Of a stretch of 10,203 nt of DNA, positions 1 through 10,203 are shown in pieces. Under the pieces are notes generated by a model that made no database searches, was not told where the DNA came from, and saw only the letters and a list, made by a program, of their open reading frames with translations. How positions within the stretch are numbered: the stretch's first letter is position 1; the number at the start of each line of letters is the position of its first letter. Both the position numbers and the translations under genes were made by a program. This DNA is from an archaeon (lineage in GTDB: Archaea > Iainarchaeota > Iainarchaeia > Iainarchaeales > CSSED10-239), in NCBI GenBank assembly GCA_037147375.1, contig JBAWVI010000028.1, positions 1-10,203 on the forward strand. Reading direction: 5' to 3'.

Positions 1-2
1 AA

Positions 3-779
3 GAATATTTATATTTTTCAAATAATTCAAATTTATTAAATGCAATATATGATGATGCATTTATTGACCAATACCAGATATATTTGAAAAGGCAATATCC
101 TGAGCTTGCAATAAATAATGTAATTGAGTCGAAGGATTATGTTACTACAATAATTAAAAAAGTAATTTATGAAGATTCAATTAAATATTATCCAGATATG
201 GATATAGAAATTTTATTAAGTTTATTGAAAATTATATTAAAAGATCCTGGGCAAATTATAGATTATGTTGATTTAGCAAATGAGTTAGGTACAGATAGAA
301 AAGCAATATCTAAATATTTAGATTATTTAATTAATTCTGGTCTTGTTAGAAAAACATATCATTTTTCAAATAATGCTAGAAAAGTTGAAAAGATGTCTAA
401 AAAGTTTTATCCATTTTGTACAACTTTAATTTCCTTTGTAAATGATAATCCAAATGAAAGTAAATTGATTGAGACAGATGTTGCATTTCAACTAAATGCA
501 GAATATTTTTGGGATGATAAAGGCACAAGAGAAGTTGATTTTATAATTTTTGATGATATCTCTTCTAAAAAGATTGGTGTTGAAGTGAAATATAGAAATC
601 AGATTACTGCAAAAGATATTAATAATTTTAAATTAAAAGCTATAGAAAAATTAAGTTTAGATAAAAAGTATTTAATTATTAAAGATGGATCAATAATTGA
701 TTTTGATCCAAAAAAAGAAAATATTATTTTATTAAAATATTATTTAGTTTGGAGAGATTTTAATAATTTAAAGAATTAA
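3..779 (+). CDS. AAA+ ATPase of the COG1373/DUF4143 type, C-terminal portion only (5' end outside the window)
   Basis: The frame of the 84..779 ORF has no stop codon back to position 3 (EYLYFSNNSNLLNAIYDDAFIDQYQIYLKRQ...). The TTG at 84 is therefore an artefact of the window edge. There is a wHTH-like segment (IIDYVDLANELGTDRKAISKYLDYLINSGLV, then KKFYPFCTTL). The C-terminal nuclease-like motif (REVDFIIFDD...IGVEVKY) matches my recollection of DUF4143 ATPases. Confidence 0.7.
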   Translation, partial: EYLYFSNNSNLLNAIYDDAFIDQYQIYLKRQYPELAINNVIESKDYVTTIIKKVIYEDSIKYYPDMDIEILLSLLKIILKDPGQIIDYVDLANELGTDRKAISKYLDYLINSGLVRKTYHFSNNARKVEKMSKKFYPFCTTLISFVNDNPNESKLIETDVAFQLNAEYFWDDKGTREVDFIIFDDISSKKIGVEVKYRNQITAKDINNFKLKAIEKLSLDKKYLIIKDGSIIDFDPKKENIILLKYYLVWRDFNNLKN

Positions 780-815
780 ACTAAAACACAGTGTGTTATA
801 TTTGTTGGACAGTTT

Positions 816-1385
816 ATGCTTACAAAAATCTCTGAAGGAATATACAAAATATCAAATTCATCTAACCTCTTCTATTTATCAGATTTTCAAACATTAATTG
901 ATGCAGGGGATAGAATAGATAGAGATGAAATTATTTCTGATTCTATTTCTATCTTTCAGCCAACAGAGATTAAGCAAGTTATCTTTACTCATCTTCACTA
1001 TGATCATATAGGTAACTTTGATATATTTACTAAAGCAAATTTCTTTGCATCAGGAAAAGAAATAAAAACTTTAAAAGAAAATAGAGAAGGAACTATTCTT
1101 GATCCCTCTCTTTCAAAAATATTTAATTGTAAGATAAAGAACATCTCTGGTATTAAGCTTCCTTTCAATAGATTCTTAATTTTAGAAACTCCTGGACACA
1201 CAATAGGAAGTATGTGTATATTTGATAAACAAGAGAAGATACTTTTTTCTGGAGATACTTTGTTTGATAACGGAAACATAGGAAGATGCGATCTTGAAAC
1301 ATCAGTTCCAGGAACTATGAAACAAAGCTTACAAAAACTAAAAGCACTTGATTATAAGATTCTTTGTCCTGGGCATGATTATTAA
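816..1385 (+). CDS. small MBL-fold metallo-hydrolase
   Basis: It carries the classic metallo-beta-lactamase motifs in order: HLHYDH (HxHxDH), TPGHTIGS, FSGDTLF and a C-terminal CPGHDY. It has an ATG start and lies 37 nt after the upstream gene. Confidence 0.88.
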   Translation: MLTKISEGIYKISNSSNLFYLSDFQTLIDAGDRIDRDEIISDSISIFQPTEIKQVIFTHLHYDHIGNFDIFTKANFFASGKEIKTLKENREGTILDPSLSKIFNCKIKNISGIKLPFNRFLILETPGHTIGSMCIFDKQEKILFSGDTLFDNGNIGRCDLETSVPGTMKQSLQKLKALDYKILCPGHDY

Positions 1386-1393
1386 TCTCAAAG

Positions 1394-1465
1394 GTATGCT
1401 TGGCCAGCTACCCCCCCGAAAAGAATATATAAGCAAATAATTATATATTAATGGTGATACTTAAG
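1394..1465 (+). repeat. R1 copy A (1394-1430) plus R3 extension (1431-1465)
   Basis: GTATGCTTGGCCAGCTACCCCCCCGAAAAGAATATAT is followed by AAGCAAATAATTATATATTAATGGTGATACTTAAG. R1 recurs at 3051, 4149, 4960 and 6369. The R3 extension recurs almost identically at 6406-6441. R1 starts 8 nt after the stop codon at 1385. Confidence 0.9.
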
Positions 1466-1563
1466 GATAGGTTGATAATAATTACAAGCAAAAAAATGTT
1501 TAATTAATAATATGTAGGTAATATTTATAATATTGCGTAATTGCTTATAGGTAAGGAAAGTAT

Positions 1564-1571
1564 TTAAATAC
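1564..1571 (+). promoter_or_regulatory. candidate archaeal TATA box for a leaderless transcript starting near ATG 1593
   Basis: TTTAAATA is centred about 26 nt upstream of ATG 1593. No Shine-Dalgarno motif lies in between. TATA-like strings are frequent in DNA this AT-rich, so support is weak. Confidence 0.35.
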
Positions 1572-1592
1572 CTTTTGTTACTTACACATAGT

Positions 1593-2192
1593 ATGCTTGC
1601 AAGAAATATTAAACAATTAAGAATAATTAGAACACTTTTAGATAATCCTATAGGGTCTTTAACAAAATATAGAATTGCAAAGATCGTAGGTTGTTCGACA
1701 CCAAGAGTAATCCAAGTTATACACAAACTAGAACAACAAAAATTAGTTGCAGGTACAACTGTTATTGACTTAAATAAATTAATAGATTATTATATTAAAA
1801 TAAACACCCAGAAATTAAAAAAATATTATTATCATCTTTCAAACCCAATGGATTTCTTTAAAAAAATAAAACTAGATTATGCTTTTACAACATATATTGC
1901 AGAGAACATAGTGAATCATCACTTATTTCCAAATAAATTTGAATTATATGTGTCTAAAAAAGATATTATGGCCTGGGTGGAATTATTAAAAGATAATGCA
2001 TTAATAGGAAAAGGAAATTTAGTATTAATTGTTTTAGAAGATGATGATGTATTAAAAGAATCTAAAAAGATTGATAATTATAATATTATATCTATTCCAC
2101 AATTATTGATTGATCTTAAACGCGAAGGTGGAGTATGTATAGAAGCATATAATATTTTATTAGATAAATATGTACGACAAAAGAGAAACTGA
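1593..2192 (+). CDS. wHTH DNA-binding protein, AbiEi-like antitoxin/regulator candidate
   Basis: The N-terminal wHTH is LRIIRTLLDNPIGSLTKYRIAKIVGCSTPRVIQVIHKLEQQKLV. The C-terminal part (YAFTTYIAENIVNHHLF...ELYV, IISIPQLLIDLKREGG) resembles the AbiEi C-terminal domain pattern. I prefer ATG 1593 to the TTG at 1575 used by the ORF track. The gene overlaps the downstream gene by 23 nt. Confidence 0.6.
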   Translation: MLARNIKQLRIIRTLLDNPIGSLTKYRIAKIVGCSTPRVIQVIHKLEQQKLVAGTTVIDLNKLIDYYIKINTQKLKKYYYHLSNPMDFFKKIKLDYAFTTYIAENIVNHHLFPNKFELYVSKKDIMAWVELLKDNALIGKGNLVLIVLEDDDVLKESKKIDNYNIISIPQLLIDLKREGGVCIEAYNILLDKYVRQKRN

Positions 2193-2931
2193 TATAAGTT
2201 ATAAATACTTGAAATCAATAATATTAAAACTACATGAACCAATTATAATTATAGGTGGTTGGGCAACCTACTTTACAGTAAATAAAAACTATAAAAAAGA
2301 ATTTGGTGTTAATTATATTGGTTCTAGAGATGTAGATCTAGGATTTAATAATATAAAATCCTTTAAAGAAACAAGTACTATCCTAGAAAAAGATGGATTT
2401 GAATTTATATGTTTTAGATATTTAAAAGAAATAAGTTATGAGACTGGTAAAGAATTAACTAAAAAAGAATCTATGATTATTCCAATATATAATATTTTTT
2501 CAATGTATGTTGATTTAATAATTTCAGAAACAGATTTGAAAATAGAAAAAGAACTTGGATTTGTTCCTGTTGATGAACCATTAATTAAATTGGTTTTTAC
2601 AAATAAAAAACATAGAACAGAATTAATTGAATTTAGAAAAAAATTATGGTTACCATCTCCATACCTATTATTAACTACAAAAATTAATGCTATAGTAAAC
2701 AGAACCAAAGATCATAAGAGAGTTAAAGATTATTGTGATATTATTGCAATTTGTTTATATTCTGGAGAAAACACAAATAATTTAATTTTTTTTGTAAAAG
2801 AGAACGCGATTAAAGAAAGAATATTAAAACTTAAAAAAATTATTAATCAAGAAGAATTAAAGCAAGTTTCTAATATATTAAAAATAGATATAGATATAAT
2901 AAATAAAGTAATAAATAAAATAGTAAATTAA
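2170..2931 (+). CDS. minimal nucleotidyltransferase-fold protein (AbiEii/DUF2204-like toxin candidate)
   Basis: NTase signature: IIIGGWATYF ... GSRDVDLGF (G-G/S ... DxD), then a hydrophobic strand with Asp (MYVDLII). A C-terminal KRVKDYCDI mirrors the VRDIFDI motif of the AbiEii at 7325..8272. The 23-nt overlap with the upstream wHTH gene suggests an operon. Confidence 0.62.
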   Translation: MYDKRETDISYKYLKSIILKLHEPIIIIGGWATYFTVNKNYKKEFGVNYIGSRDVDLGFNNIKSFKETSTILEKDGFEFICFRYLKEISYETGKELTKKESMIIPIYNIFSMYVDLIISETDLKIEKELGFVPVDEPLIKLVFTNKKHRTELIEFRKKLWLPSPYLLLTTKINAIVNRTKDHKRVKDYCDIIAICLYSGENTNNLIFFVKENAIKERILKLKKIINQEELKQVSNILKIDIDIINKVINKIVN

Positions 2932-2986
2932 CTTAATTAACTTAACAGATATTTAAATATAATAACATTTTATACTACTACACTAC

Positions 2987-3018
2987 TTTTCCTTATATTA
3001 TATATTCAATAATATCCT
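2987..3018 (+). repeat. R2 copy 1 (TATA-rich repeat)
   Basis: The sequence is TTTTCCTTATATTATATATTCAATAATATCCT. Positions 2992-3018 are identical over 27 nt to 8438-8464, and 18 nt are shared with 4869-4886. It lies 33 nt upstream of R1 copy B. It could be a BRE/TATA promoter, but I cannot establish that. Confidence 0.85.
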
Positions 3019-3050
3019 ATCCCTTCTCAACCAATCTAATTCTGGTTCAA

Positions 3051-3090
3051 TGATGCTTGGCCAGCTACCCCCCCGAAAAGAATATACACC
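3051..3090 (+). repeat. R1 copy B
   Basis: TGATGCTTGGCCAGCTACCCCCCCGAAAAGAATATAC is followed by ACC. The right flank ATATACACC and the left flank TTCAAT..GATGC are shared with copy D. Confidence 0.9.
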
Positions 3091-3122
3091 CCAAATTCTA
3101 TAATATATCCGGTGACTTGTGT

Positions 3123-4148
3123 ATGGGTAATAATAAAAGTATTGTGAATAAAGAATATATTCTTTTTTTAAACGATATTAAGCAAAGAATAATAACATCT
3201 CAATATACTGCACTAAAAGCAGTAAATAAGGAATTAATTAATCTTTATTGGGATATAGGAAAAAGGATAGTTGAAAAACAAAAAGAACTTAAATGGGGTA
3301 AATCAGTTGTTGAAAACCTCGCAAAAGATTTACAGAATGAATTCCCAGGCATCAAGGGTTTTTCTTCCAGAAACTTGTGGAATATGAAGCTATTTTATGA
3401 CATTTATAAGACAAACACAAAACTGCAACCATTGGTTGCAGAAATTAGCTGGGCAAAGAATATAGTTATTTTAGAGAAATGTAAAGATGATCTTGAAAAG
3501 GAATTTTATATTAGAGTTACTTCAAAGTATGGATGGACTAAAAACATATTAATTAATCAAATTGAAAATAAATCTTATGAGAAGTTTCTATTAAATCAAA
3601 CAAATTTTGATAAAGCTATTCCTGAAAAATATAAAGATCAAGCCAAGCTTGCAGTAAAAGATGAATATACTTTTGATTTTCTTGAATTAGGAGAAGAACA
3701 TTCAGAAAAAGAACTTGAAAATTCTTTAATTAAAAACATAAAAGAATTTCTAAATGAAATGGGTGGATACTTTTGTTTTATTGGAAGTCAATATCGTCTA
3801 AAAATTGATAATGAAGAATATTTTATTGATTTAGTTTTATATCATCGTAAGTTAAGATGCTTAATGGCTCTTGAACTGAAAATAGGTAAATTTAAACCAG
3901 AGTATGCTGGCAAGATGCAATTTTATTTATCAGCATTAGATGATTTAGTAAAGCTTGAAAATGAAAATCCATCAATTGGAATTATTATATGTAAAGAAAA
4001 AAACAGAACAACAGTTGACTATGCATTAAAAGATGTTAAAAAACCAATCGGGATATCAACCTATAAGATGACTTCAACTTTACCAAAAAGTCTTATGAAG
4101 TATTTACCTTCAAGAGGAGATATAGAAAGAAGAATATTTAAAATATAA
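3123..4148 (+). CDS. YhcG-family (DUF1016) PD-(D/E)XK nuclease domain protein
   Basis: The N-terminal region (FLNDIKQRIITSQYTALKAVNKELINLYWDIGKRIVEKQ) and the nuclease core (FIDLVLYHRKLRCLMALELKIGKFKPEYAGKMQFYLSALDD) are typical of the YhcG family. GGTGA at 3111-3115 lies 7 nt upstream of ATG 3123. The track's start at 3057 is a TTG inside repeat R1, so I reject it. Confidence 0.88.
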   Translation: MGNNKSIVNKEYILFLNDIKQRIITSQYTALKAVNKELINLYWDIGKRIVEKQKELKWGKSVVENLAKDLQNEFPGIKGFSSRNLWNMKLFYDIYKTNTKLQPLVAEISWAKNIVILEKCKDDLEKEFYIRVTSKYGWTKNILINQIENKSYEKFLLNQTNFDKAIPEKYKDQAKLAVKDEYTFDFLELGEEHSEKELENSLIKNIKEFLNEMGGYFCFIGSQYRLKIDNEEYFIDLVLYHRKLRCLMALELKIGKFKPEYAGKMQFYLSALDDLVKLENENPSIGIIICKEKNRTTVDYALKDVKKPIGISTYKMTSTLPKSLMKYLPSRGDIERRIFKI

Positions 4149-4186
4149 GTATGCTTGGCCACACAACCCCACTGAAAAGAATATAC
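4149..4186 (+). repeat. R1 copy C (most divergent copy, 1-nt longer)
   Basis: The sequence is GTATGCTTGGCCACACAACCCCACTGAAAAGAATATAC. It begins right after the TAA at 4146-4148. It fills essentially the whole 42-bp gap between the convergent genes 3123..4148 (+) and 4191..4712 (-). Confidence 0.85.
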
Positions 4187-4190
4187 AAAT

Positions 4191-4712
4191 TTAATTGAAC
4201 GCAGGAATACCAATATTTACTTTTGTTTTAGTATTTATAAGATATTTATCAAGAATTGGTACAAGTACAATTATGAAGATACACACGGTTGCTAAATGAA
4301 GTAACGTAAACGGAATTTGTCCTACAAATGCAACTATAAAGCTCATATGAAATAAAAACGAACTCATTATTGGTCCTGTAATAAAATCAAATATTAAAAC
4401 TCCAAAAACTCCACCAGTAATATAGTTTAATAACGTTAATCTTTCTTTATTTCTATAAATATATGCAAAAAACCAACCAAGAAGACCAAATGTTGTTGCA
4501 GTTACAATTGTCCATATTCCAACCTTGTTTGTGATAATATCGAAAGAAAACATTGTGATGAATGCAAATATACCTGCTGATAATCCATTATCTCTTTTTG
4601 CAAATGGAAGCATGGTTCCCATTATTGGATCTGCATTAGGTATATGAAGTAATCTAAAAAGGTTGCAGAAGATTCCTGCGATTACATATTTAAATATTTT
4701 CTTGAGACCCAT
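4191..4712 (-). CDS. small polytopic membrane protein of unknown function (possibly a transporter substrate-capture component)
   Basis: Its 173 aa form about five hydrophobic segments (IAGIFCNLF, GIFAFITMFSF, IWTIVTATTFGLLGWFFAYI, GGVFGVLIFDFITGPI, FTLLHLATVCIFIIVLVPI). A strong RBS, GGTGAT (complement of 4717-4722), lies 4 nt before the ATG. It is the only credible minus-strand gene in the window. Confidence 0.72.
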   Translation of the reverse strand: MGLKKIFKYVIAGIFCNLFRLLHIPNADPIMGTMLPFAKRDNGLSAGIFAFITMFSFDIITNKVGIWTIVTATTFGLLGWFFAYIYRNKERLTLLNYITGGVFGVLIFDFITGPIMSSFLFHMSFIVAFVGQIPFTLLHLATVCIFIIVLVPILDKYLINTKTKVNIGIPAFN

Positions 4713-4857
4713 CTACATCACCAACCCAGGTTATACTTATTGCTATAAAAATAAATTTAATTTGTTTAAATATTACTTCCAACAAACTTAAAAATAGATT
4801 TATACAGAAATCAAAAAAATAAGAAATTTATAAAAAAAAGTTAAATACAAAAATGAA

Positions 4858-4936
4858 TATATAATATAATATATTCAATAATATCCATCTTTTCCTAAAA
4901 CCCACATCAATAAGTAAATATCAGGATATTCTTTCA
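4858..4936 (+). repeat. R2 copy 2 (4858-4886, partial) plus R2b box (4909-4936)
   Basis: ATATATTCAATAATATCC (4869-4886) matches R2 copies 1 and 3. AATAAGTAAATATCAGGATATTCTTTCA (4909-4936) matches 8504-8531 at 26 of 28 positions. It contains the small inverted repeat AATATC-AG-GATATT. Confidence 0.8.
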
Positions 4937-4959
4937 GGGCACAGCTATTGATTCAATAA

Positions 4960-4999
4960 TGATGCTTGGCCACGTACCCCCCCGAAAAGTATATACACC
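4960..4999 (+). repeat. R1 copy D
   Basis: TGATGCTTGGCCACGTACCCCCCCGAAAAGTATATAC is followed by ACC. It lies 46 nt upstream of ATG 5045. Confidence 0.9.
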
Positions 5000-5044
5000 A
5001 CTTTATACATTATATATTTATTTCTCAAATCCAATAGGATAAGT

Positions 5045-6361
5045 ATGCAAGAAAATGAAGTAATTGAACTCAAAAAATCAACATCTGAAAATAAAGAAGC
5101 AGTTATATCTATCTGTTCAATTCTAAATAAACATAAAAAAGGAGAATTGTATTTTGGAATAAATAATAAAGGTAATTCTATTTACCAAACAATTACTGAT
5201 AAAACATTAAGAGATATTTCTCAAGTAATTTCAAGCAACATAGAACCAAAGATATATCCTATTATAGAAATAATAAATATAAATAATATTGATTGTATAA
5301 AAGTATCTTTCCAAGGAGAAAATCAACCTTATTTTGCATATGGAAGAGCATATAAAAGAGTGGCTGATGAAGATAGGCAGTTATCAGCAAAAGAGCTTGA
5401 ATTAATGATTCTTGATAAACATAAAGAAAAATTAAGATGGGATACACAAATAAATGATAAATGTAAAATTAATGATATTAGTAAAACTAAAATTAAACAA
5501 TTTTTAATAAAATCAGGAAATAAGTTTGATAACCTAAGCAATTCACTTACTAAACTTGAACTTATCAAAGAGAATAGGCTTGTAAATTGTGCAATTGCAT
5601 TATTTAGTAAAAATCCAAGATCTTTTTTCCCAAATATTAGATTAAGATGTGCAATCTTTGCAAGCGATGATACAACAACTCCAATTGATATGCAAGAATT
5701 TGATGGAGATATATTTAATTTAATTGATGAAGCTGAAAAATATGTTTTTAAAAATATACACACCGGGATGAAGCTTGATGGGTTAGTAAGAGTTGATGTT
5801 CCTGAAATAAATAAAGAAGCATTAAGAGAAGTTATAATTAATGCATTTTGTCATAGAGATTATTGGAAATATGATTCTGTAAATATTGCAATTTTTAAAA
5901 ATAGAATTGAAGTAAGAAGTCCTGGTCTTCTTTATCATGGGCTTACTATAAAAAAAATAAGAACAGAGCAGGTTTCTGAAAGAAGAAATGAAAAAATTGC
6001 AGAATTATTTCATCTGATTCATTATGTTGAAAGATGGGGAAGAGGGATAAGTTTAATATTATTAAAAGAACCAGAAACTGAGTTTAAAGAAGTAGGAAGT
6101 CAGTTTATAGTTGTGTTTAAAAGAAAAGTAAGCTCAACAGAAACTGTGGCAAAAAGTTCGGAGAAAAGTTCGGAGAAGAGTTCGGAGAAAATATTAACAT
6201 TAATTAAAGTAAATTCTTTAATTTCCGCAAAAGAGTTAGCTATTAATTTAAAGATTAGTTCGAGAGCAGTAGAAAAACAAATTTCAAAATTAAAACTTGA
6301 AGGGAAGATAAGAAGAATAGGTTCAGATAAAGGTGGGCATTGGGAAATAATTTCAAAGTAA
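5045..6361 (+). CDS. AlbA_2 (Schlafen-like) + HATPase_c_4 + C-terminal wHTH protein ('putative DNA-binding / RecG-like ATP-binding' family)
   Basis: The N-terminus (EVIELKKSTSENKEAVISICSILNKHKKGELYFGINNKG) fits the AlbA_2 pattern. REVIINAFCHRDYW...IAIFKNRIEVRSPGLL...RRNEKIAELFHLIHYVERWGRGISLI fits HATPase_c_4. The C-terminal wHTH is ISAKELAINLKISSRAVEKQISKLKLEGKIRRIG. A weak SD (AGGAT) lies 5 nt upstream of the ATG. Confidence 0.85.
   Translation: MQENEVIELKKSTSENKEAVISICSILNKHKKGELYFGINNKGNSIYQTITDKTLRDISQVISSNIEPKIYPIIEIININNIDCIKVSFQGENQPYFAYGRAYKRVADEDRQLSAKELELMILDKHKEKLRWDTQINDKCKINDISKTKIKQFLIKSGNKFDNLSNSLTKLELIKENRLVNCAIALFSKNPRSFFPNIRLRCAIFASDDTTTPIDMQEFDGDIFNLIDEAEKYVFKNIHTGMKLDGLVRVDVPEINKEALREVIINAFCHRDYWKYDSVNIAIFKNRIEVRSPGLLYHGLTIKKIRTEQVSERRNEKIAELFHLIHYVERWGRGISLILLKEPETEFKEVGSQFIVVFKRKVSSTETVAKSSEKSSEKSSEKILTLIKVNSLISAKELAINLKISSRAVEKQISKLKLEGKIRRIGSDKGGHWEIISK
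6155..6190 (+). repeat. 12-bp x 3 in-frame tandem repeat (AGTTCGGAGAAR) encoding (SSEK)3
   Basis: The units are AGTTCGGAGAAA, AGTTCGGAGAAG and AGTTCGGAGAAA. They sit in the linker between the HATPase_c_4 region and the C-terminal wHTH of the 5045..6361 gene. Confidence 0.9.
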
Positions 6362-6368
6362 ATCAGAT

Positions 6369-6441
6369 TGATGCTTGGCCACCTACCCCTCCGAAAGGGA
6401 TATATAAGCAAATAATCATATATTAATGGTGGTACTTCAAG
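6369..6441 (+). repeat. R1 copy E (6369-6405) plus R3 extension (6406-6441)
   Basis: TGATGCTTGGCCACCTACCCCTCCGAAAGGGATATAT is followed by AAGCAAATAATCATATATTAATGGTGGTACTTCAAG. The extension differs from 1431-1465 by two substitutions and one 1-nt indel. R1 starts 7 nt after the stop codon at 6361. Confidence 0.9.
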
Positions 6442-6599
6442 AAATTGTATGAAAAATGATTATTAATAATAAAAAATTAGATTATTTAATTTAATAAAAT
6501 TTATAATAAAAAAAAGTGATATTTAAATTATAAAAACATTTAAAAATTATTGTAGTCAGATAATATATAATTATCCAAAATAGGTTAATTTGATTAAAT

Positions 6600-7346
6600 A
6601 TGACTATTATAAAAAAACAAACAAATATAAGTAAATTAATATCTGCAATGGAATATTATTCAGTTAGATATATTTCTAAAGACCAATTACTAGATATTAT
6701 TACAAAATTAAATATTAAAAGTAATCCTAATACTCTTATCTATAAAATGATATTAGGGAAGCATATTGTAGTTATAAAACAAAACACTTATTTGTATATC
6801 CCAATAAGTTCAATAGATAGGATACCACAAATAACAGAATATGAATTAAATGAAGCATATTTAGGTGAAAATGAAAAATATTATATTGGTTTGTGGAATG
6901 CCTATAATTATTATGGATTTACAACCCAAGTATCAAATAAATTATTTGTTTTTAATAAAAAAATAAACCTTAATAAAAAAATATTATCTAAAGAAATTAA
7001 ATACATTAAAGTTTCAAATAATTATATGTTTGGAATAACCAAAGATAAATATCCATTATCAGATAAAGAAAAAACAATAATAGATATATTGAATTATTTT
7101 AAAGATATTGGAAATTTAAAAGATATTATTTTAGAAATAAAAAAGCATAGTTTTGATGTAAACAAACTAATAACTTATGGTAAAGAAACTAAATCAATAA
7201 AGATGCTTAAATTAATTGGCATAATTACAGATAATTTAGATTTATATAATTATTTAAAGTCAAAAAATAAATTAAGTTATTATACTTATATTAGAGGTTC
7301 TACAAAAAAGGAGATATATCCAAAATGGAAATTAAAACTAATATAA
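6600..7346 (+). CDS. abiEi: AbiEi-family antitoxin / transcriptional regulator (type IV TA system)
   Basis: It lies immediately upstream of a clear AbiEii gene and overlaps it by 22 nt. The central segment (YYIGLWNAYNYYGFTTQVSNKLFVF) resembles the AbiEi 'ALxxHGLTxQxP...xxV' region. The N-terminal region is compatible with a wHTH. Confidence 0.72.
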   Translation: MTIIKKQTNISKLISAMEYYSVRYISKDQLLDIITKLNIKSNPNTLIYKMILGKHIVVIKQNTYLYIPISSIDRIPQITEYELNEAYLGENEKYYIGLWNAYNYYGFTTQVSNKLFVFNKKINLNKKILSKEIKYIKVSNNYMFGITKDKYPLSDKEKTIIDILNYFKDIGNLKDIILEIKKHSFDVNKLITYGKETKSIKMLKLIGIITDNLDLYNYLKSKNKLSYYTYIRGSTKKEIYPKWKLKLI

Positions 7347-8272
7347 ATGAATTATTAAAAGAAATATCAAGTAAAAATGGATATTCTTTAGCTGTAATAT
7401 TAAAAGAAATATCAAGTAAAAATGGATATTCTTTAGCTGTAATAGAAAAAGATTATTATCTTACACAAATATTATTGGAATTATCAGTTAATCCAATTCT
7501 TGATATAGTATTTAAAGGTGGAACCTGTTTGAATAAATATTATCTTGGATACTATAGGATGAGTGAAGATCTTGATTTTATATATAATGTTGATTTATCA
7601 AAGTCCACAAATAGATCTATTAAAGTTAAATCAGAATCAATTCGTAAATTATTTTATACTCTATTAACTAAACTTAATTTAGAAACAAGTGATGAATTAG
7701 GTCTTGGTTGGGAAAAAATCACAGATAATAAAAGTAAAAGAATCCTTAATTTAAAAATAATTACAAAATATAAATCAATAATTACAGAGAGAAAAGAAAG
7801 ATTAATAATTGAAATTTCATTTAGAGGCAAACTAGTTTTAAAACCCAAAAATAGGAAAATTATTCATTTGTTTTATGATGCTATAAATAATCCAATCCTT
7901 GATTCAAACAAAAAAATAATTTGTATAGATCTTGTAGAAAATATAGCAGAAAAATATAGAGCACTGATTACAAGAAAGAATATAGCAGTACGAGATATTT
8001 TTGATATTTATTATGTTTTAAAATTTAAAAAGAAATTAATACAAATAGATGATTCATTTATAGATTTAATATTAAAAAAGATAAGAGAATCTATTCCTGA
8101 TTACACAAAGAAGAAATTGATAGAATATTTACGTTCAATAGATCCAAATAAGATAGATATTCAACCTATACAAGTAGTATTAAAACAAAGTTTAATTGAT
8201 AAAAGCAACAAGAATATACTTGTATCAACAGAGAAGATGTTAAAGACGATAATAAAACCAATAATAAAGTAA
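7325..8272 (+). CDS. abiEii: AbiEii/AbiGii-family nucleotidyltransferase toxin (DUF1814)
   Basis: Hallmark motifs are IEKDYYLTQILLEL, FKGGTCLNKYY...RMSEDLDF, AEKYRALITR and VRDIFDIYYV. GGAG at 7310-7313 lies 11 nt upstream of ATG 7325. Confidence 0.9.
   Translation: MEIKTNINELLKEISSKNGYSLAVILKEISSKNGYSLAVIEKDYYLTQILLELSVNPILDIVFKGGTCLNKYYLGYYRMSEDLDFIYNVDLSKSTNRSIKVKSESIRKLFYTLLTKLNLETSDELGLGWEKITDNKSKRILNLKIITKYKSIITERKERLIIEISFRGKLVLKPKNRKIIHLFYDAINNPILDSNKKIICIDLVENIAEKYRALITRKNIAVRDIFDIYYVLKFKKKLIQIDDSFIDLILKKIRESIPDYTKKKLIEYLRSIDPNKIDIQPIQVVLKQSLIDKSNKNILVSTEKMLKTIIKPIIK
7353..7444 (+). repeat. perfect 45-bp tandem duplication (2.04 copies) inside the abiEii coding sequence
   Basis: Positions 7353-7397 are identical to 7398-7442, and the match continues 2 nt further. 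The duplication is in frame and repeats the 15 aa LKEISSKNGYSLAVI just before the conserved EKDYYL motif. Confidence 0.95.
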
Positions 8273-8357
8273 GAATAACTACAAACAAAAAATAATTATA
8301 AAATAATAATTAATAAAGCAAAGATATCTTGTAAAAATTCCAATAATGAAATAAACG

Positions 8358-8385
8358 ATCATTTTGTTGACGTCAACAAAACGAT
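8358..8385. repeat. 28-bp near-perfect palindrome (perfect 20-bp core TTTTGTTGACGTCAACAAAA at 8362-8381)
   Basis: ATCATTTTGTTGAC|GTCAACAAAACGAT has one mismatch in its 14-bp arms. It lies 86 nt downstream of the abiEii stop. It could be a hairpin, a terminator-like element or a dimeric protein-binding site. Confidence 0.85.
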
Positions 8386-8431
8386 AAATATGCCTAAGGG
8401 AGCAACTAAAGAAATAAATAAGACAGATATT

Positions 8432-8531
8432 ATTTCCCTTATATTATATATTCAATAATATCCTTCTTTCATTAAAAATCTTTTTTTCACCAAAATTTAT
8501 ATGAATAAGTTAATATCAGAATATTCTTTCA
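8432..8531 (+). repeat. R2 copy 3 (8432-8464) plus R2b box (8504-8531)
   Basis: ATTTCCCTTATATTATATATTCAATAATATCCT matches copy 1 over 27 identical nt. AATAAGTTAATATCAGAATATTCTTTCA matches 4909-4936. Unlike copies 1 and 2, it is not followed by an intact R1. Confidence 0.85.
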
Positions 8532-8667
8532 TTATGTCCAGTCCAATATATTCTCCCCACCCTTGTCCAACATTTTCTTCTTTTTTCAGCACAATTATTA
8601 AATGTTACTTTTTAATTAAAAATAGTTATTCAAAAAGGAATTTTGGTGCACCTTTTAAAAAGGTATT

Positions 8668-8811
8668 GTCTCCATAATTATAGGTAATTAGTTTTTTTTA
8701 AGATTATTTTTTTCAAATAATTTTAAATAAAATAAAGGGGTTGATATAACAAAACTTATATTGCTATACATTGGATATGCCTTACGAGTCTCCATGAATA
8801 TAGGTTTTGAG
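8668..8811 (+). repeat. two ~24-nt direct repeats 120 bp apart in the long intergenic region
   Basis: GTCTCCATAATTATAGGTAATTAG (8668-8691) matches GTCTCCATGAATATAGGTTTTGAG (8788-8811) at 19 of 24 positions. Each is followed a little further on by a related A/GGATTAT..TTTC stretch (8699-8713 and 8830-8847). Confidence 0.6.
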
Positions 8812-8957
8812 GGATTATATTTATTAAAAGGATTATCTTTCATTTCTTTTTTTTATATGAGGGAAGATAGTTCTTTTATATTAGAATAAAGATAAAACAA
8901 ATAACAAATGAAATTTAAAAAAAAGTTAGGATATTTTATATTGGGAGATGATGATAG

Positions 8958-10203
8958 ATGGTATTTTTAAATAAAGAAAAGGTAAATAAATATAGGAATA
9001 TATTTTTACTATTTTTTATAATGATATTTATGGTAGGTGCAATGGGGCTAGTAAATGCTGCCTGTACAATAACAGAGGTAGACATCACTGCACCCACAGA
9101 TGGAAATTCATGGAGTGGAACACAAAGTATTACTTGGACTCCAGTGGTTGATGAAAACCATGATGGGAACAGTTGTACTTATGCTGTTTTGCAAAGTGTA
9201 GATAATGAGAATTGGTATCAAATTACTGGGATTACAAATCCAGGAGTAACAACTAAGTCTTGGAATACTACAACAGTAACTGATGCTGCAACTTATCAAG
9301 TTAGAATACAAAATTATCCAGTGGGAACAGTATATGATACTACTGGGCAATTTACAGTTGATAATAATCATCCAACAATTGCAGAAGTAACTGCTGTAAC
9401 AACACCAACAAAAGATAATACACCAGATTATACTTTTAGTAGTAATCAAGCAGGAACAATAGCTTATGCAGGGGGTTGTGATTCTAATACAACAAGTGCA
9501 ATAGCTGGCGATAATCCTATTATATTTAATACCTTAGTAGATGATGAATATAACGATTGTACAATCACAGTAACTGATGTAGCATTAAATGTATCTAATA
9601 CATTAGATGTAACTGATTTTACAGTTGATACAGTAGAACCAACATATGTAATTTCATATAATCATTCTAGTCCTGTAAAAGCAGGAACTATAGTTAGAAT
9701 AACTTCAACCTTTAATGAGGATATGAATCTAACTCCTCTTCCAAAGATTGCATTATCAGGTGGTAATACTGTAGGTGCAACAGATATGACAAGAAGTAGC
9801 GCAACATCTTATTATTATGATTGGAATGTAGGAGCAGGAAATGGAGTAACTACTCCAGTAGTGACTACAGGAATTGATCTTGCAACAAATGATATAAATG
9901 CAACTGGTTCAACACCAACAACAATAACAGTTGATAATGTTGCACCAACAATAACTTCTGCAGATATAACAACAGCTGATAATTCATATAAAGCTGATCA
10001 AAATATAAACATCACAGTTACTTATGATGAAAATGTTACTATAACTGGTTCTCCAAGAATAACTTTGAATGTTGGTCCAACAACCAGATATGCTACATAT
10101 AATAGTGGTACTGGAGGAACAGAAATTGTGTTTAGATACACAGTAGTAAGTGGAGACACTATTGGAGATTTAGGAGCTGCAAGTGTTAGTTCTCTTGGAT
10201 TAA
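8958..10203 (+). CDS. secreted cell-surface protein with tandem Ig-like domains (adhesin / S-layer-associated type), 3' end outside the window
   Basis: I translated this frame by hand from ATG 8958 to the window end and found no stop codon. It is absent from the ORF track because it has no stop in the window. The N-terminus (MVFLNKEKVNKYRNIFLLFFIMIFMVGAMGLVNAAC) looks like a signal peptide. The body is Thr/Asn/Val-rich with recurring domain-boundary motifs: FTVDNNHPTI (9351), FTVDTVEPTY (9618) and ITVDNVAPTI (9924), spaced 89 and 102 aa apart. GGAG at 8944-8947 lies 10 nt upstream of the ATG. Confidence 0.8.
   Translation, partial: MVFLNKEKVNKYRNIFLLFFIMIFMVGAMGLVNAACTITEVDITAPTDGNSWSGTQSITWTPVVDENHDGNSCTYAVLQSVDNENWYQITGITNPGVTTKSWNTTTVTDAATYQVRIQNYPVGTVYDTTGQFTVDNNHPTIAEVTAVTTPTKDNTPDYTFSSNQAGTIAYAGGCDSNTTSAIAGDNPIIFNTLVDDEYNDCTITVTDVALNVSNTLDVTDFTVDTVEPTYVISYNHSSPVKAGTIVRITSTFNEDMNLTPLPKIALSGGNTVGATDMTRSSATSYYYDWNVGAGNGVTTPVVTTGIDLATNDINATGSTPTTITVDNVAPTITSADITTADNSYKADQNINITVTYDENVTITGSPRITLNVGPTTRYATYNSGTGGTEIVFRYTVVSGDTIGDLGAASVSSLGL

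Follow-up and report, generated by a model that had tools for sequence, protein, structure and literature searches.

A GC-rich promoter-associated repeat as the probable operator of a radA/defence regulon in one lineage of DPANN archaea

Here, we analyze R1, a short GC-rich sequence that occurs five times between the genes of a 10,203-nt stretch of archaeal DNA (GenBank assembly GCA_037147375.1, contig JBAWVI010000028.1, positions 1 to 10,203), which we refer to as "the window." The R1 copies lie behind the gene for a metallo-β-lactamase (MBL)-fold hydrolase, and they divide the DNA that follows into modules whose cargo includes a YhcG nuclease, a Schlafen-family protein and an AbiE toxin-antitoxin (TA) pair (Table 1). 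A first interpretation, made from the letters of the window only (the "sequence-only reading"), took the arrangement for an integron-like cassette array with a new recombination site, and named a conserved RNA or protein-binding element reused between modules as a fallback. The evidence favors the protein-binding element. We consider it probable that R1 is the operator and core promoter of a lineage-specific regulon of radA and defence genes, rather than an integron-like recombination site. The anatomy of R1, its spacing and orientation, its gene associations, its presence or absence and its coordinated change were determined by sequence; we infer from these the sites at which transcription would start, a binding protein, an inducing signal and a recombination route.

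The R1 repeat and its promoter geometry

We searched the window with the pattern ATGCTTGGCCANNNNCCCC, which specifies 15 bases, allowing up to two mismatches and using 200 dinucleotide-preserving shuffles as background. There are exactly five matches, at 1396, 3053, 4151, 4962 and 6371, all on the plus strand, against a mean of 0.00 in the shuffles. Most of the original description of the repeat is reproduced (repeat family D3): five direct copies with spacings of 1657, 1098, 811 and 1409 bp; one gene or one overlapping gene pair per interval, with one gene inverted; a position close behind the upstream stop codon in three cases (8, 0 and 7 nt for copies A, C and E); a copy C that occupies the whole gap between two convergent genes, whose stop codons lie at 4148 and 4191; and a GC box that is conspicuous in a window of 25% GC. 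Two details had to be revised. The left edge of R1 is fuzzy rather than abrupt, with a preferred WWTK immediately upstream, and conservation extends beyond the ~37 bp first proposed, since copies A and E match over 72 nt (89%). Their likeness persists to ~1467 in copy A and ~6442 in copy E, and copy B has ~70 nt in common with copies on other contigs, as far as the ribosome-binding site.

Table 1. Positions of R1, R2 and the genes of the island in the window
Feature	Positions	Strand	Remarks
MBL-fold hydrolase	816..1385	+	Conserved core gene; left border of the variable island
R1 copy A	1396..1431	+	GC box 1396-1417 (ATGCTTGGCCA GCTA CCCCCCC); BRE-like GAAAAG 1418-1423; TATA AATATATA 1424-1431; next gene start 142-160 nt downstream, with its own proximal TATA
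Module A cargo	1593..2931	+	Overlapping pair, 199-aa helix-turn-helix protein and 253-aa protein; TA-like organization
R2 copy 1	2995..3017	+	Second intergenic repeat, core TATTATATATTCAATAATAT
R1 copy B with full promoter/leader	3053..3122	+	GC box 3053-3074; GAAAAG 3075-3080; TATA AATATACA 3081-3088; AT-rich proximal box TATAATATAT 3099-3108; ribosome site GGTGA 3111-3115; YhcG ATG 3123
Module B cargo	3123..4148	+	YhcG/DUF1016 PD-(D/E)XK nuclease; PADLOC candidate PDC-S02
R1 copy C	4151..4187	+	Most diverged copy; the only one without a co-oriented downstream gene
173-aa membrane protein	4191..4712	-	Inverted; own promoter, not R1-driven
R2 copy 2	4864..4886	+	Repeat
R1 copy D	4962..4997	+	GC box 4962-4983; GAAAAG 4984-4989; TATA TATATACA 4990-4997; before the Schlafen/AlbA_2 gene, ATG 5045
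Module D cargo	5045..6361	+	Schlafen/AlbA_2, HATPase_c_4 and winged helix-turn-helix (wHTH) protein
R1 copy E	6371..6406	+	GC box 6371-6392; GAAAGG 6393-6398; TATA GATATATA 6399-6406; AbiEi gene start 6600
Module E cargo	6600..8272	+	AbiEi 6600-7346 (E = 3.5e-24); AbiEii 7325-8272 (Pfam E = 6e-23, PADLOC E = 2.5e-31)
R2 copy 3	8441..8463	+	Right border of the island; following sequence collinear with L024 and L039

For comparison, we collected relatives of the window, consisting of contigs from a metagenome scan and contigs fetched via orthologous genes, the loci being denoted by L and a number. The alignment of 32 distinct R1 copies has the consensus T..TGCtTGGcCA..taCCC.ccc.aaa...AtATA.a and can be divided in three, with a GC box of 22 nt (TGCTTGGCCA, ~4 variable nt and a C-tract), a purine-rich TFB recognition element (BRE; GAAARG) and a TATA-like octamer (RATATAYA). 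At the core of the GC box, ahead of the C-tract, GCTTGGCCA(A)GC forms a dyad that is partial or perfect; L048:2580 has a perfect 12-bp palindrome, GCTTGGCCAAGC. In most copies, the octamer is followed by ~10 nt, an AT box (TATAATATAT), GGTGA and, 5-8 nt further on, a start codon. In L017 and L019, the start codon comes 21 nt after the 3' edge of the octamer, a leaderless geometry; in most other copies it comes after 31-33 nt, and GGTGA lies ~22 nt past the octamer.

Because the host is an AT-rich DPANN archaeon, we applied the rules of archaeal promoters. Mapped promoters of Methanocaldococcus jannaschii have the TATA pattern TWTATATA with a 9-nt BRE directly upstream, and in 94% of them the distance from the TATA edge to the start site is 23±2 nt (PMC2699501). 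The octamer and BRE of R1 fit an archaeal core promoter in sequence and, as judged from spacing alone, in position (21 nt to the ATG; 22 nt to GGTGA). The 3' third of R1 thus reads as a BRE/TATA core promoter that would give leaderless or very short-leader mRNAs. For copy B, the M. jannaschii spacing rule (PMC2699501) predicts a transcription start at ~3110-3113.

The placement of R1 follows the gene downstream of it. A co-oriented open reading frame (ORF) lies downstream of 31 of the 32 distinct copies, the exception being copy C of the window. The only minus-strand R1 found, L035:3158, belongs to a separate locus, where the ORF6N gene behind it is likewise on the minus strand. All 32 copies, at separate loci, directly adjoin the BRE, so that the same motif recurs at a fixed core-promoter position.

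Distribution of R1 and the genes it precedes

R1 is confined to one clade. The metagenome scan yielded 13 AT-rich contigs with true R1 copies, and a profile search of 146 kb of related DNA yielded 29 full and two partial copies. The exact MBL protein of the window is present on four public contigs of the same layout, including the metagenome-assembled genome GCA_964445425.1. R1-bearing contigs encode the archaeal ribosomal proteins S3Ae, S8e and L3, as well as SecDF and a diversity-generating retroelement (DGR; Avd plus reverse transcriptase), and homologues are listed under "archaeon" or "Candidatus Woesearchaeota." Among the GTDB species-representative genomes, from which the source lineage is absent, there are seven single matches to the R1 pattern, all in GC-rich bacteria; this is about the chance rate, estimated from the size of the collection and the length of the pattern. 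R1 was not found in viral, phage or plasmid collections, and neither R1 nor an array is present at MBL orthologues of 53% identity (L040) or at YhcG homologues of archaea with 40% GC (L044, L046).

Within the clade, R1 precedes a specific set of genes. It lies before radA in L012 and L018 (the L012 gene matches the Rad51 Pfam model with E = 4e-91), and lineage variants lie before radA in L042 and L048. A degraded copy, CGGCCAGCTACCCTACC-AAAAAAC-ATATATTC, precedes radA in L049, where radA directly neighbors the PPDK gene and no accessory gene intervenes. In L026, a diverged copy is found ahead of a DEAD/ResIII/Helicase_C (Hef-like) helicase gene. The remaining cargo consists of YhcG (PADLOC PDC-S02), RhuM (PDC-S05), Bro-N (PDC-S13), ORF6N, Schlafen/AlbA_2-HATPase_c_4, AbiE and an uncharacterised 276-aa protein. 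In the 146 kb of related DNA, none of the 29 full copies precedes a housekeeping gene other than radA and the helicase gene; there is no R1 at the genes for aminoacyl-tRNA synthetases, Trm5, DisA, CSD, CTP synthase or MBL on R1-bearing contigs.

The left half of R1 is lineage-specific yet common to unlinked loci. In the window lineage it is ATGCTTGGCCA, and in L035 it is TTGCTTGGACA in five of seven copies, across two loci. In the L031/L042 lineage, every copy seen has TTGCGTGGCCAGCAC; these copies are at the Bro-N, YhcG and radA genes, which occupy two separate loci. One genome probably encodes both the MBL and the YhcG protein of this lineage, because the longest contig listed for each is 977,747 bp. 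Coordinated substitutions of this kind fit a co-evolving binding protein; gene conversion among copies would also yield them.

Separately from R1, the radA gene has a 5' leader of ~130 nt with a conserved hairpin, CCAGAAGTTAACCTAACTTCTTTGG, and a conserved block, GTGAGGCGARAAACACAAGAAATAAAACGCAA (L012:1790-1917, L018, L042:11455-11586, L048 and L050:9870-10000). The block is retained even in L050, which is without R1. No Rfam family matches this sequence, a possible leader or regulatory RNA element of radA.

Features expected of the operator of a regulon are found at R1: the motif recurs at orthologous radA genes across lineages (L012/L018, L042, L048, L049), and lineage-specific left halves recur at unlinked sites. 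We propose that TBP and TFB bind the TATA box and BRE of R1, and that transcription begins ~22 nt further on, in some cases at the start codon itself and in others at a short leader with GGTGA. The GC box, predicted to lie at about -38 to -60 relative to the start, would be read by a putative sequence-specific DNA-binding protein. This protein would co-regulate a lineage-specific regulon of radA, the Hef-like helicase gene and the accessory defence-island genes YhcG, RhuM, Bro-N, ORF6N, Schlafen/AlbA_2 and AbiE. Because of its membership, the regulon is a candidate DNA-damage and/or anti-virus response.

Three known systems resemble such a regulon. First, at the Methanococcus fla promoter controlled by EarA, TFB recruitment is believed to be aided by a cis element that borders the BRE on its upstream side (PMC5512572). 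The GC box of R1 likewise directly adjoins the BRE, and for this reason the protein that reads it is more probably an activator; the alternative is a repressor that would occlude the BRE. The mechanism for R1 is drawn from position only, and whereas EarA controls a single operon via short repeats, R1 has a 22-nt GC-rich box at tens of promoters. Second, DdaA is a bacterial activator that controls both DNA-damage and anti-phage genes (PMC12392091). Like the LexA SOS box and the sites of the WYL activators DdaA, PafBC and DriD (PMC12392091, PMC6789036), R1 is one motif at a fixed promoter position that joins a recombinase gene (recA or radA) to repair genes and anti-phage or mobile-element genes. 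Unlike these, R1 lies in an archaeal BRE/TATA promoter rather than a sigma-70 promoter, its conservation spans the whole promoter block, and damage induction is only a candidate. Third, at the termini of the virus SIRV2, unrelated early genes each lie behind a highly similar regulatory sequence with a strong BRE/TATA and the presumed operator of Aca8 (PMC11065993). R1 resembles this sequence in being shared ahead of small, unrelated single genes, with cargo tied to defence or counter-defence. By contrast with SIRV2, R1 is chromosomal, its host is a DPANN archaeon, virus genes are absent from its surroundings, and viral collections contain no match; it has an extra 22-nt GC box upstream of the BRE, and its gene set includes the core gene radA.

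Several points weigh against R1 being an operator and core promoter. No candidate regulator has been established, and no LexA or WYL regulator was identified. The start sites are predictions from spacing alone. For the TATA-like octamers of ordinary genes on R1-bearing contigs, in a genome of 75% AT, the histogram of positions has no more than a weak mode 21-24 nt ahead of the ATG, which lends support without being decisive. The second conserved AT box, TATAATATAT, 10 nt past the R1 TATA, could be the true TATA for some copies, and the genes that copies A and E precede, at a distance of 142-192 nt, each have a proximal TATA box of their own. The near-identity of ~70 nt among promoters of unrelated genes exceeds the needs of a binding site and therefore indicates common descent or gene conversion of promoter blocks. 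Finally, the sampling is biased, most contigs having been fetched via R1 itself or R1-linked genes.

As to a regulator, a conserved 110-114-aa ArsR/Sso10a-like wHTH protein is encoded beside another variable hotspot (L035:3182-3517, L009, L031:2083-2427, L039:4035-4367). That hotspot holds ORF6N in L035 and L009, and Fic in L039. The wHTH protein is a possible candidate for the R1 regulator.

The variable island and alternatives to a shared promoter

The sequence-only reading had looked to strain-level gain, loss and reordering of R1-bounded modules, and among the relatives compared these are real. The same MBL gene is followed by no modules in L039, one in L031, six in L035 and five in the window. 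The single module of L031 is R1-Bro-N, followed by DisA; those of L035 are RhuM, the 199/253-aa pair, ORF6N-HATPase, YhcG, YhcG and Bro-N. In L039, where R1 is absent, R2 comes immediately after the MBL stop codon, and the DNA beyond it is collinear with window positions 8440-8623. Modules also occur at other hotspots: the gene ahead of radA is YhcG in L042 and L048 and a Schlafen gene in L018, and in L025 a Schlafen gene follows a DGR reverse transcriptase. In three contigs, R1 modules come directly after a DGR (Avd four-helix-bundle protein and reverse transcriptase; L025:160-2027, L026:588-2456 and L048:695-2560), and DGR loci are another recurrent insertion hotspot. Between the window and L035, orthologous modules are ~91% identical (90.6% at the nucleotide level for module A), and the flanking MBL gene is 85% identical.

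The breakpoints of these rearrangements are not limited to one position in R1, unlike what had been expected of a recombination site; they lie within a few nt upstream of R1, past its TATA, at R2 and inside the last codons of the MBL gene. Copy C illustrates this. It is the positional orthologue of the sixth R1 of L035, which drives Bro-N; similarity between the window and L035 spans YhcG and R1 and ends right after the copy C TATA (~4189). The profile score of copy C is 29 bits, compared with ~50 bits for the other copies. Because copy C is the most diverged copy and has lost its gene, we read it as a decaying orphan promoter rather than a selected recombination site.

The second repeat, R2, marks other joints of the island. 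Its direct copies in the window flank two multi-gene segments, 2995-4864 and 4864-8441, and it is also present in L024, L035:13283 and L039:10577; in L039 it lies directly behind the MBL stop codon, with no R1 module there. R2 looks like ancestral sequence at the island border, and its role could be that of a promoter, a terminator or mere homology. In addition, the 40-45 nt upstream of some R1 copies resemble the 3' end of the MBL gene. Positions 4919-4961, upstream of copy D, are similar to 1353-1395 at ~70% over 77 nt including R1 (family D2), and the same likeness is seen at L035:13350-13392 and in L024, as if the junction of the MBL end and R1 had been duplicated.

The cargo was largely named correctly at the outset. 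The PD-(D/E)XK nuclease and the Schlafen-type protein are YhcG and the Schlafen/AlbA_2-HATPase_c_4 protein, respectively. Of the two AbiE-type TA modules proposed, only the pair at 6600-8272 is one, with an AbiEi antitoxin and an AbiEii nucleotidyltransferase; the pair at 1593-2931 matches no AbiE model. A 45-bp tandem duplication (7348-7437; 96% identical) within the 5' end of the AbiEii gene is in frame and doubles 15 codons (…LLKEISSKNGYSLAVI…), and the AbiEii protein may be intact despite it. The archaeal YhcG protein of the window shares 67-70% identity with homologues whose names refer to Trichlorobacter, Nitrospirota, Deltaproteobacteria and Elusimicrobiota, which points to recent cross-domain transfer of this gene. 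In the Schlafen-family gene, a 12-bp unit, AAAAGTTCGGAG, is repeated about three times at 6141-6188 and codes for a SEKSSEKSSEK linker ahead of the C-terminal wHTH. Window positions 5834-6404 share 87% DNA identity with L035:13804-14365, where the C-terminal half of the AlbA_2 protein (HATPase_c_4 and wHTH) is matched by the C-terminal half of an ORF6N-HATPase_c_4 protein; this indicates swapping of N-terminal domains among R1-driven genes. Beyond the last module is a 690-nt non-coding stretch (8273-8957), unusually long for a compact genome. It precedes a gene for a large secreted or surface protein (8958-10203) with a signal peptide-like N-terminus and repeated Ig-like segments, which runs past the window end and has no Pfam or NCBIfam match.

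If R1 is a shared promoter, the array would arise because the window is a hypervariable island behind the MBL gene, in which each inserted gene brings or keeps its own R1 promoter. The near-identical promoter blocks of 40-70 nt, together with R2, would serve as portable homology through which homologous recombination adds, deletes and reorders modules. Homologous recombination between R1 blocks probably shuffles modules. A stronger version, compatible with R1 being an operator and promoter, is that RadA-dependent homologous recombination between R1 blocks or R2, by unequal crossover or Campbell-type integration of excised circles, is what builds the arrays. We regard this as a plausible but tentative account. 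Blocks of 60-70 nt are 85-98% identical between unrelated genes; modules recur beside other genes that carry R1, namely ahead of radA, ahead of Bro-N-DisA and behind the DGR reverse transcriptase; direct R2 copies surround 2995-4864 and 4864-8441; and R1 variants are homogenized within a genome, which suggests gene conversion. However, those shared variants could instead reflect selection by a co-evolving binding protein, and no direct evidence of recombination events was found. Moreover, the last module of each array precedes a gene without R1 (DisA or the S-layer region), and a first entry into the empty site cannot use R1.

A more far-reaching possibility, which we think unlikely, is that R1 blocks are parts of a new archaeal gene-capture system. 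Incoming genes, some of them bacterial, such as YhcG, would be recombined at R1 into a few chromosomal hotspots and would at once gain an archaeal promoter that puts them under a radA-linked damage or infection regulon. Such a system would be a functional analogue of the integron built on promoter homology or an R1-specific recombinase, not on attC and IntI.

Somewhat less likely still is the proposal closest to the original one, that R1 is the attachment site of a putative site-specific recombinase, perhaps encoded elsewhere in the genome, that moves single-gene cassettes in a non-attC, integron-like system. The resemblance to integron attC arrays, including the Vibrio VCR super-integrons and archaeal integrons (PMC9668308), is considerable: direct repeats lie between one-gene modules of variable content, and among the cargo are genes for TA systems and defence, part of them derived from bacteria. 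R1-bounded modules differ in order, number and chromosomal hotspot among related genomes; the gaps from the upstream stop codon to R1 are very short; R1 contains a palindromic core, TGGCCA; and the relic copy C lies at a rearrangement breakpoint. Nevertheless, an integron-like cassette array with a new recombination site is not supported by the comparison. Unlike integrons, the arrays have no adjacent IntI (which an integron requires but a CALIN does not), no attC hairpin and no R/L core sites around R1. The absence of canonical attC architecture, already remarked upon from the window, is borne out for all five copies and their flanks on both strands, with single-stranded DNA fold z-scores of -1.5 to +1.5 and no shared structure, and the RYYYAAC/GTTRRRY cores are missing throughout the 32-copy alignment. 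No recombinase domain is present among the window proteins, in agreement with the earlier failure to find an integrase there, and no recombinase is in the gene tables within ±10 kb of related arrays at six loci. Integron cassettes are mostly promoterless and oriented with the array, whereas R1 stands at the 5' end of each gene, carries a BRE and TATA box and takes its orientation from the gene, as in the minus-strand copy at L035:3158. R1 is part of the radA promoter, and thus at a core gene, where cassettes are absent (L049); the empty site of L039 is without R1; breakpoints also fall at R2, within the last MBL codons and past the TATA box; and the orphan copy C decays rather than staying conserved.

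That R1 and its 70-nt block form a selfish element, resembling a miniature inverted-repeat transposable element with an outward-facing promoter, is improbable. R1 does have many near-identical intergenic copies and a lineage-specific sequence, but repeat finding and alignments gave no terminal inverted repeats or target-site duplications, the left edge being fuzzy and the right edge varying by subtype. R1 is also placed at promoter distance from a co-oriented start codon, is kept at radA in four lineages and is absent from viral, phage and plasmid collections. Least probable of all, and hardly credible, is that R1 acts as RNA, whether a terminator, a 3'-end stabilizer of the upstream mRNA or a structured small RNA: it does begin 0-17 nt past many upstream stop codons, but no fold beats shuffled sequence on either strand, R1 has neither a T-tract nor an Rfam match, and there is nothing to terminate upstream of copies D, L011 and L035:3158, which have divergent genes or non-coding DNA on that side.

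Other identities were considered and rejected. The minus strand, GGGGGGGTAGCTGGCCAAGC, resembles the acceptor and D arm of a tRNA, as in a tRNA fragment or split tRNA; the likeness stops there, ARAGORN finds no tRNA in the window, and 17 related loci contain a single one, a tRNA-Asn that is unrelated. Searches for known RNA families gave just two sub-threshold chance Rfam matches, elsewhere in the window. Nor is R1 coding sequence: although some copies have an ORF that extends from R1 into the gene, it is interrupted in L008 and L009 by an in-frame TAG ahead of the ATG. An archaeal origin-recognition box, a box C/D RNA and a DNA uptake sequence fit poorly given the order of dyad and G-string, the distribution of copies and the lack of C/D boxes.

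Implications for gene regulation in DPANN archaea

To our knowledge, no SOS-type regulon is known in archaea, and we are aware of almost nothing on gene regulation in uncultivated, small-genome DPANN archaea. R1 links radA and a helicase of the fork-repair type with genes for nucleases, TA systems, Bro-N, ORF6N and RhuM that change from relative to relative. If R1 is indeed the operator of a regulon, it would be a testable entry to a damage and/or anti-virus response in DPANN archaea. It would also offer a means of predicting new defence genes from their promoters, as has been done for the anti-defence genes of archaeal viruses. Should R1 instead be merely a strong shared promoter, it would still be a handy marker of variable islands in this lineage. 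The R1 island would also be a concrete case of horizontally acquired genes, bacterial ones included, becoming expressed and shuffled in an archaeal host.

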